DNA from: Escherichia coli | GTDB lineage: Bacteria; Pseudomonadota; Gammaproteobacteria; Enterobacterales; Enterobacteriaceae | Reading direction: 5' to 3' (one strand) | Length of the DNA: 64,000 nt | NCBI RefSeq assembly: GCF_009931435.1 | Contig: NZ_CP043414.1 | Part shown: piece after piece, positions 55,736 through 55,771 of the stretch | Layout of the letters: each line of letters begins with the position of its first letter | Position numbering within the stretch: the first letter of the stretch is position 1 | Made by a program: the position numbers and the translations under genes | The notes under the pieces: model-generated | The model's database searches: none | Told to the model about the DNA's origin: nothing | What the model saw: only the letters and a program-made list of their open reading frames with translations

Positions 55736-55771
55736 GCCGGATGCGATGCTATCGCATCTTATCCGGCCTAC
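55736..55771. repeat. REP (repetitive extragenic palindromic) element between ftsK and lolA
   Basis: GCCGGATGCGATGCTATCGCATCTTATCCGGCCTAC matches the REP pattern GCCGGATG...CTTATCCGGCCTAC. Confidence 0.75.

Follow-up and report, generated by a model that had tools for sequence, protein, structure and literature searches.

What is the palindrome that stands between ftsK and lolA in Escherichia coli, where did it come from, and does it do anything for the genes beside it? The question is considered here in a window of 64,000 nucleotides, by which we mean the whole stretch of DNA that was analysed (assembly GCF_009931435.1, contig NZ_CP043414.1). The window is reverse-collinear with MG1655 929,034-993,167 at about 97.3% identity. 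The closest complete genome, strain 2020CK-00188, is 100% identical over 701 bp around the palindrome and 99.5% identical over 24 kb. Only 7 complete genomes reach at least 99% identity to the window, and the 701-bp probe is 95-96% identical to most E. coli genomes. The last figure had raised the idea of a species other than E. coli, which was rejected in view of the collinear 97.3% match to MG1655 and the 99.5% match to 2020CK-00188. The local gene order on the minus strand is ftsK, lolA, rarA, serS, and both ftsK and lolA are essential genes. The locus is composed as follows.

55782-59810, minus strand: ftsK open reading frame, with its stop codon at 55782-55784 (open reading frame and annotation).
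55772-55781, minus strand: 10-nt spacer from the ftsK stop to the head of the REP (sequence).
55734-55771, minus strand: complete y-type REP, or palindromic unit, with GTAG head, imperfect palindrome and 2-nt tail (covariance model positions 1-38).
55627-55715, minus strand: conserved lolA upstream region, outside the REP, with a hairpin, ACTCCCGGTCGGGAGT, at 55645-55660 (E. coli and cross-genus alignments, folding).
55012-55623, minus strand: lolA coding sequence, downstream of ftsK and co-oriented with it (list of open reading frames; annotation of the identical stretch in strain 2020CK-00188).

The REP is thus extragenic: it follows the ftsK stop (55782) and precedes the lolA start (55623). 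An earlier note on this DNA had placed it 10 bp from the ftsK stop and about 110 bp before lolA, and both distances hold. There are 10 nt (55772-55781) from the stop to the GTAG head and 14 nt from the stop to the stem; the gap between REP and lolA is 110-112 nt, with the annotated lolA start at 55623 and an alternative ATG at 55626. The ftsK gene itself varies in length among strains, from 3990 to 4107 nt in the annotations seen, and the FtsK linker (57324-57557) contains internal repeats, which give overlapping BLAST alignments of 88-90% identity at shifted MG1655 positions.

Is the palindrome a true REP? A regular-expression scan that allowed one mismatch per arm returned dozens of chance matches within genes, while a strict expression missed real REPs, for example GCCGGAC variants. 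For this reason a covariance model was adopted. It was made from an alignment of 8 E. coli REPs, namely the ftsK REP and seven from MG1655 that represent types y, z1 and z2, the classical malE-malF units among them. In a search of the whole 64 kb with filters off, the ftsK REP scored 61.8 bits with an E-value of 2.3e-17. The same model gave 58.5 bits to the K-12 ortholog, and as a measure of sensitivity it found an MG1655 REP outside the training set at 54.5 bits. The complete element is 2 nt longer than the span first noted, starting at 55734 and not 55736. On the plus strand 55736-55771 reads gccggatgcgatgctatcgcatcttatccggcctac; on the minus strand, the sense strand of ftsK and lolA, the same span is GTAG-GCCGGAT-AA-GATGC-GATA-GCATC-GC-ATCCGGC. 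The parts are listed in the sense direction.

55768-55771, minus strand: GTAG head (CTAC on the plus strand), 5' of the stem foot (sequence and covariance model).
55761-55767, minus strand: 5' arm of the lower stem or foot, GCCGGAT, which defines the y type (fold and REP alignment).
55759-55760, minus strand: AA, one half of the two-base stem mismatch, facing GC at 55743-55744 (REP alignment).
55745-55758, minus strand: upper stem GATGC/GCATC with its GATA loop (fold and allele comparison).
55736-55742, minus strand: 3' arm of the lower stem, ATCCGGC (fold and allele comparison).

E. coli REPs are defined as elements of 30-40 nt with GTAG 5' of the foot and a two-base mismatch in the stem (PMC3333891). 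The ftsK element has 38 nt and is an imperfect, foldable palindrome; GTAG stands at 55771-55768 on the minus strand, and the mismatch of AA (55760-55759) against GC (55744-55743) is unchanged in 8 of 8 allele types. A foot of 7 bp and an upper stem of 5 bp make 12 base pairs around a loop of 4 nt. In its local context the RNA fold reaches -24 kcal/mol (z = -4.4), which none of 200 shuffles equals. The 14-mer CTTATCCGGCCTAC has a single occurrence at 0 mismatches. Since the foot is GCCGGAT and not the GCCTGAT of types z1 and z2, as seen in the alignment with MG1655 y, z1 and z2 REPs, the element belongs to the y type. Thus the earlier call of a REP stands up to comparison with the consensus, in that head, foot, mismatch and stem all match classical REPs. 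With a 49-nt REP query, 5425 of 5426 complete E. coli genomes each give at least 40 matching places. The MG1655 RefSeq annotation, in the copy examined, carries no REP features even at malE-malF, and therefore it neither confirms nor denies the ftsK REP.

Support of another kind comes from a mobile element. IS1397 is an insertion sequence specific to E. coli REPs (PMC1525189). In strain GF43 (NZ_CP172127.1) an IS1397 copy of the IS3 family sits in the loop of the orthologous ftsK REP with GGTA duplicated, at a site between ftsK and lolA that corresponds to window 55745-55758. This is independent and almost experimental support for the identity of the REP. We conclude that the palindrome is almost certainly a single y-type REP, oriented so that GTAG lies on the coding strand of ftsK and lolA. 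It is an ordinary element of a kind already known, with an ortholog in K-12. TnpA-REP binding requires GTAG and the stem mismatch (PMC3333891), and the window allele, which has the two, appears to hold the sequence requirements for binding by TnpA-REP (RAYT).

Does it stand alone? The earlier note had described it as the only REP of the 64 kb, and the covariance-model scan of the whole window agrees. The score that follows is the same palindrome read on the opposite strand (12.3 bits in the 64 kb, filters off), and no other REP was found in the 64 kb, as all remaining matches have at most 12 bits and E-values of at least 0.2 and were judged to be noise. Three of these noise matches were mapped, two in genes (dmsA and cydD) and one in the ftsK-lrp spacer. 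The description of a single REP, which had come from the same source, is likewise borne out, with one match in the ftsK-lolA spacer that is not part of a BIME. Membership of a BIME was ruled out, because there is one REP in the spacer and one in the whole window. Only 84 of 584 REPs in K-12 are single occurrences (PMC3333891). With 355 annotated REP loci, the figure given in PMC4550694, about 5 loci per 64 kb are expected (355 loci in 4.64 Mb; our own arithmetic). The window is therefore REP-poor, only marginally so, with a Poisson probability of about 0.04 for one locus or fewer.

In MG1655 the corresponding stretch holds one further REP locus, in which a y and a z2 unit are paired between gloC and aspC. 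The insert is about 165 bp long and consists of a y iREP, a 35-nt linker and a z2 REP, which looks like BIME-1/RIP. It lies within a bidirectional terminator hairpin and has the direct repeat AGCCCGCTTTT on its flanks. In the window the aspC-gloC spacer (8649-8697) has the hairpin intact with no insert, that is, an empty site. The left junction of the pair occurs in 3186 of 5426 E. coli genomes. Such plain presence/absence polymorphism of a REP pair in the same region, absent from the window, counts in favour of one reading of the ftsK REP that recurs below, namely that it is a neutral or selfish relic of REP/RAYT-type proliferation without function in cis, whose symmetry comes from DNA-level conversion or hairpin-templated repair.

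The single occurrence bears on another reading, in which the element would serve at the DNA level to bind gyrase, DNA polymerase I or nucleoid proteins, or would give an naRNA4-type RNA, and would take part in chromosome organisation near ftsK. REPs are reported to bind Pol I, gyrase and IHF (PMC1525189). However, IHF binding needs the BIME-1 linker (PMC3333891), which is absent at the ftsK REP, and there is only one palindromic unit. As for the RNA, naRNA4 is derived from REP325, and the naRNA4 family (RF02564) does match 55712-55768 on the plus strand, but below threshold and over a single REP hairpin only, with 36.2 bits against a gathering score of 59.5. A naRNA4 unit was ruled out on this score, and the sub-threshold match is shared REP sequence only. 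We regard this whole group of roles as hardly credible for the locus. Elsewhere in the window, in the dmsA-serS spacer, the enterobacterial sRNA STnc130 of Rfam is matched over its full length at 52127-52261 on the plus strand (141 bits).

When did the element arrive? Of 5426 complete E. coli genomes, 5416 carry the orthologous ftsK REP. It is also found in a species representative labelled E. coli that is 92% identical to the window over 11.5 kb, and therefore the insertion predates E. coli proper. For comparison with other genera, a degenerate pattern for the FtsK C-terminus gave at least 120 loci from species-representative genomes. From these, 36 ftsK-lolA spacers of Enterobacteriaceae were inspected, with Salmonella and the named sister species of Escherichia outside the sample. 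They include Citrobacter, Kluyvera, Enterobacter, Leclercia, Lelliottia, Kosakonia and Phytobacter, as well as Pseudocitrobacter, Pluralibacter, Superficieibacter, Pseudescherichia, Shimwellia, Cedecea and Mangrovibacter. Among the matches listed, no REP occurs in the 36 inspected spacers except at one locus labelled E. coli. In most of the REP-less genera TTGCAAAG..GGGTAAAT comes immediately behind the ftsK stop or no more than about 15 nt from it. If 36 nt (GTAG plus the palindrome) are removed from the E. coli spacer, it aligns without gaps and at equal length with six genera, Citrobacter, Kluyvera and Phytobacter among them. An alignment of equal length after excision is what a clean insertion would leave, the immediate flanks having diverged since. 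By this comparison the ftsK REP is an insertion of about 36 nt in the ftsK-lolA spacer; it arose within the Escherichia lineage and has come close to fixation in E. coli.

That the insertion is specific to one lineage, and that the relatives do without it, again favours the relic. On the other hand, a relic would not readily explain why nearly all E. coli genomes have the element and why the 92%-identical lineage has kept it. We note in passing that a block TTGCAAAG-N3-GGTAAAT in the first 20 nt or so after the ftsK stop is nearly invariant in the genera other than Escherichia. In E. coli it has been split or degraded by the REP insertion, and the remnant after the stop is CTGGTAAC in the window and in strain R4 and CTATCAAC in K-12.

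Is there any sign of selection on the element once it was there? Seven E. coli sequences were aligned, namely the window, MG1655 and five other strains. Of 23 variable columns in the spacer, 20 fall in the REP and its flanks and 3 in the 100 nt before lolA. The REP and its flanks are thus the most variable part of the spacer, which we count against a functional role, and the peak of polymorphism in and around the element is in line with a relic. Across 8 allele types all 12 pairs are kept, and 96 of 96 cells are standard pairs. In the lower stem 6 of 7 pairs are invariant in these types and the foot pair alone varies, being G-C, G-U or A-U; the top pair takes the same three states, and the window has U-A at the third variable pair, where most alleles have C-G. 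In these 3 pairs both partners have changed, and two of the pairs show G-U intermediates; 6 of 500 shuffles match this result. The upper stem reads GATGC/GCATC in the window against GGCGC/GCGTC in K-12, by compensatory changes, and the exact GATGC/GCATC allele occurs at 100% in 2020CK-00188 only.

The head has behaved otherwise. It is GTAT in K-12, and a 4-nt deletion of GTAG (equivalently CGTA) is found in 2438 of 5426 genomes (45%), counted as allele matches of at least 99% identity. The deleted allele types are O157:H7, B and ATCC 8739, compared at window 55768-55775, and in such genomes 10 nt separate the ftsK stop from the stem. Judged from the alleles, the hairpin is kept and the putative transposase-recognition head is not. 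The retention of all 12 pairs in every allele type, while the mobility-related GTAG decays, speaks against a relic. The paired changes are compatible with selection on the hairpin and also with conversion from other REP copies, since such conversion can mimic compensatory change without any selection on the RNA; this too is counted against a role.

What could the hairpin do? It is not an intrinsic terminator, because it has no U-tract, the stem being followed by AATCTGGTAAC; a scan of 55500-55900 found no terminator-like site either, and Rho-independent termination was ruled out on these two grounds. In curated K-12 Term-seq data from three conditions, confined to uniquely mapped reads, no 3' end falls in MG1655 937,210-937,289, which is one more point in favour of a relic. 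A K-12 table of Rho-dependent regions has none after ftsK, and the supplements of a SMRT-Cappable-seq study do not mention ftsK or lolA. The ftsK gene is weakly expressed, however, and this, like the restriction to uniquely mapped reads, tempers the K-12 result. These results count against the idea, put forward in the earlier note as a partition of ftsK and lolA-rarA expression, that the element is a transcriptional attenuator or insulator, where a pause of RNA polymerase or Rho-dependent termination would separate the two. The REP does lie exactly between two transcription units, and a part in transcription attenuation has been ascribed to BIMEs (Espeli et al. 2001, as cited in PMC6061677). 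But this is a single REP and not a BIME, it has neither U-tract nor terminator-like site, and the K-12 tables show no Rho-dependent region or 3' end after ftsK. Attenuation is accordingly a very unlikely role.

For hairpins of this sort two roles at the RNA level are found in the literature. REP hairpins are resistant to exonucleases and are the mark of 3' ends of mRNAs terminated by Rho; once Rho-dependent termination or cleavage has taken place, a hairpin of this type keeps PNPase and RNase II from the mRNA upstream of it (PMC6061677). Stabilisation of the ftsK 3' end had been raised as a possibility in the earlier note, and as a conjecture it is reasonable. The other role, which the earlier note did not contain, is at the level of translation. 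Down-regulation of translation is reported for REPs at a distance of less than 16 nt from a stop codon (Liang et al. 2015, in the summary of PMC12306157). The ftsK REP is 10 nt from the stop at its head and 14 nt at its stem, and since this is within 16 nt, the stop-proximal effect may by analogy apply to it. In the literature we found no direct measurement of an effect of the ftsK REP on FtsK, nor evidence that FtsK shows an effect like that of stop-proximal REPs such as nrdAB, be it lower protein output, stalled ribosomes or tmRNA tagging.

From transcription onward, we infer the following steps. In the transcript the REP would open the ftsK 3' UTR, and likewise any read-through into lolA-rarA, and it would fold there as a stable hairpin of 12 bp. 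As it lacks a U-tract, such a hairpin would not by itself terminate transcription. Most likely it would block 3'-to-5' exonucleases on ftsK transcripts that are ended or cut further downstream. Because the stem starts 10-14 nt after the stop, it may also slow termination or ribosome release mildly, with a lower output of FtsK. Such a role would be small and non-essential, because there is no U-tract, because K-12 shows no 3' end or Rho-dependent region there, and because the IS1397 insertion in GF43 is tolerated. This insertion shows that an intact ftsK REP is dispensable, and it suggests that lolA is independent of uninterrupted read-through from ftsK. A tolerated natural disruption is also what a relic would lead one to expect.

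There is a further point from the other genera. In Shimwellia, Cedecea, Mangrovibacter and Enterobacter sp. R1 the ftsK stop is followed at once by a GC-rich hairpin with a T-run (e.g. AGAGCCGCTGTTGCGGCTCTTTT), which resembles an intrinsic terminator. As these four genera have a hairpin at the position of the REP, a 3' hairpin after ftsK has arisen more than once. The four genera suggest that a 3' hairpin of some kind behind ftsK is of use without being required, and the independent presence of a hairpin at the same spot is a further argument against a relic. Counted against a role is that Citrobacter, Kluyvera and other genera have no hairpin at this position.

Taking these observations together, we lean, with some reserve, to the reading that the ftsK REP is a retained 3'-UTR hairpin of small effect, acting as a barrier to exonucleases or as a stop-proximal brake on translation. 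The main rival to the 3'-UTR hairpin is the relic without function, which we consider a real possibility if not a likely one. A bolder version may also be proposed, in which the element is a domesticated repeat that lost its mobility signal, has its hairpin held by compensatory evolution, tunes FtsK output from 10-14 nt past the stop and takes the place of the terminator hairpin of some other Enterobacteriaceae. In this full form we find it unlikely.

The part of the spacer next to lolA deserves a separate description. Within E. coli the region 55627-55715 hardly varies, and its conservation extends across Enterobacteriaceae. An RNAalifold run on the whole spacer across genera gave a consensus of 3 bp only, as MAFFT had misaligned the variable loops, and folding sequence by sequence was used for this reason. 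By that approach most genera have two hairpins. The first, CUUCUGUCACC...GGUGACAGAAG, has arms that covary (TGTCGC/GCGACA, TGTTGC/GCAACA) around a TAGAGT/TAAAGT box. The second, CUCCCG..CGGGAG, is the one at 55645-55660, about 25 nt before the lolA ATG. No Rfam family matches the region. A scan of 55500-55900 found no sigma-70-like site, and the lolA promoter was not located. The region may be a structured leader of lolA, or else a promoter/operator.

Why should a single REP be of concern? REPs belong to the repeats that have been catalogued best in E. coli, and in itself the ftsK REP matters little. What the locus adds is evolutionary. It offers a clean comparison across genera with the empty site between ftsK and lolA, changes that preserve the hairpin alongside the loss of GTAG, and in GF43 a natural IS1397 knock-out of the REP between two essential genes. 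It is thus a convenient test case for the question whether stop-proximal REPs are selected for a role at the RNA level.

How does the element compare with known systems? With the E. coli y-type REP as defined in PMC3333891 it shares the head, the foot, the mismatch, a variable upper stem of 5 bp, the length of 38 nt, the extragenic position and membership of a high-copy family. There is no essential difference, except that the ftsK copy is single and its upper stem GATGC/GCATC is a rare allele. The BIME-1/RIP-like pair between gloC and aspC in MG1655 is built of the same REP units; a BIME, however, has two inverted REPs and a linker, while the ftsK site has one unit. The malE-malF REPs (Newbury et al. 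1987, as cited in PMC6061677) are alignable members of the same family at the same type of site, just after a stop codon between co-oriented genes. They form a cluster of two good REPs and one degenerate REP, whereas ftsK has one, and they are classical stabilisers of mRNA 3' ends, whereas stabilisation at ftsK is putative and K-12 Term-seq has no 3' end there. With the post-ftsK terminators of Shimwellia, Cedecea, Mangrovibacter and Enterobacter sp. R1 the REP has its place in common, from the ftsK stop to the conserved lolA upstream region; those terminators have a T-run and are not REP-like, while the ftsK REP has no T-run. With the stop-proximal REPs (Liang, Rudd and Deutscher 2015, e.g. 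nrdAB, as described in PMC12306157), finally, it shares the distance from the stop codon.
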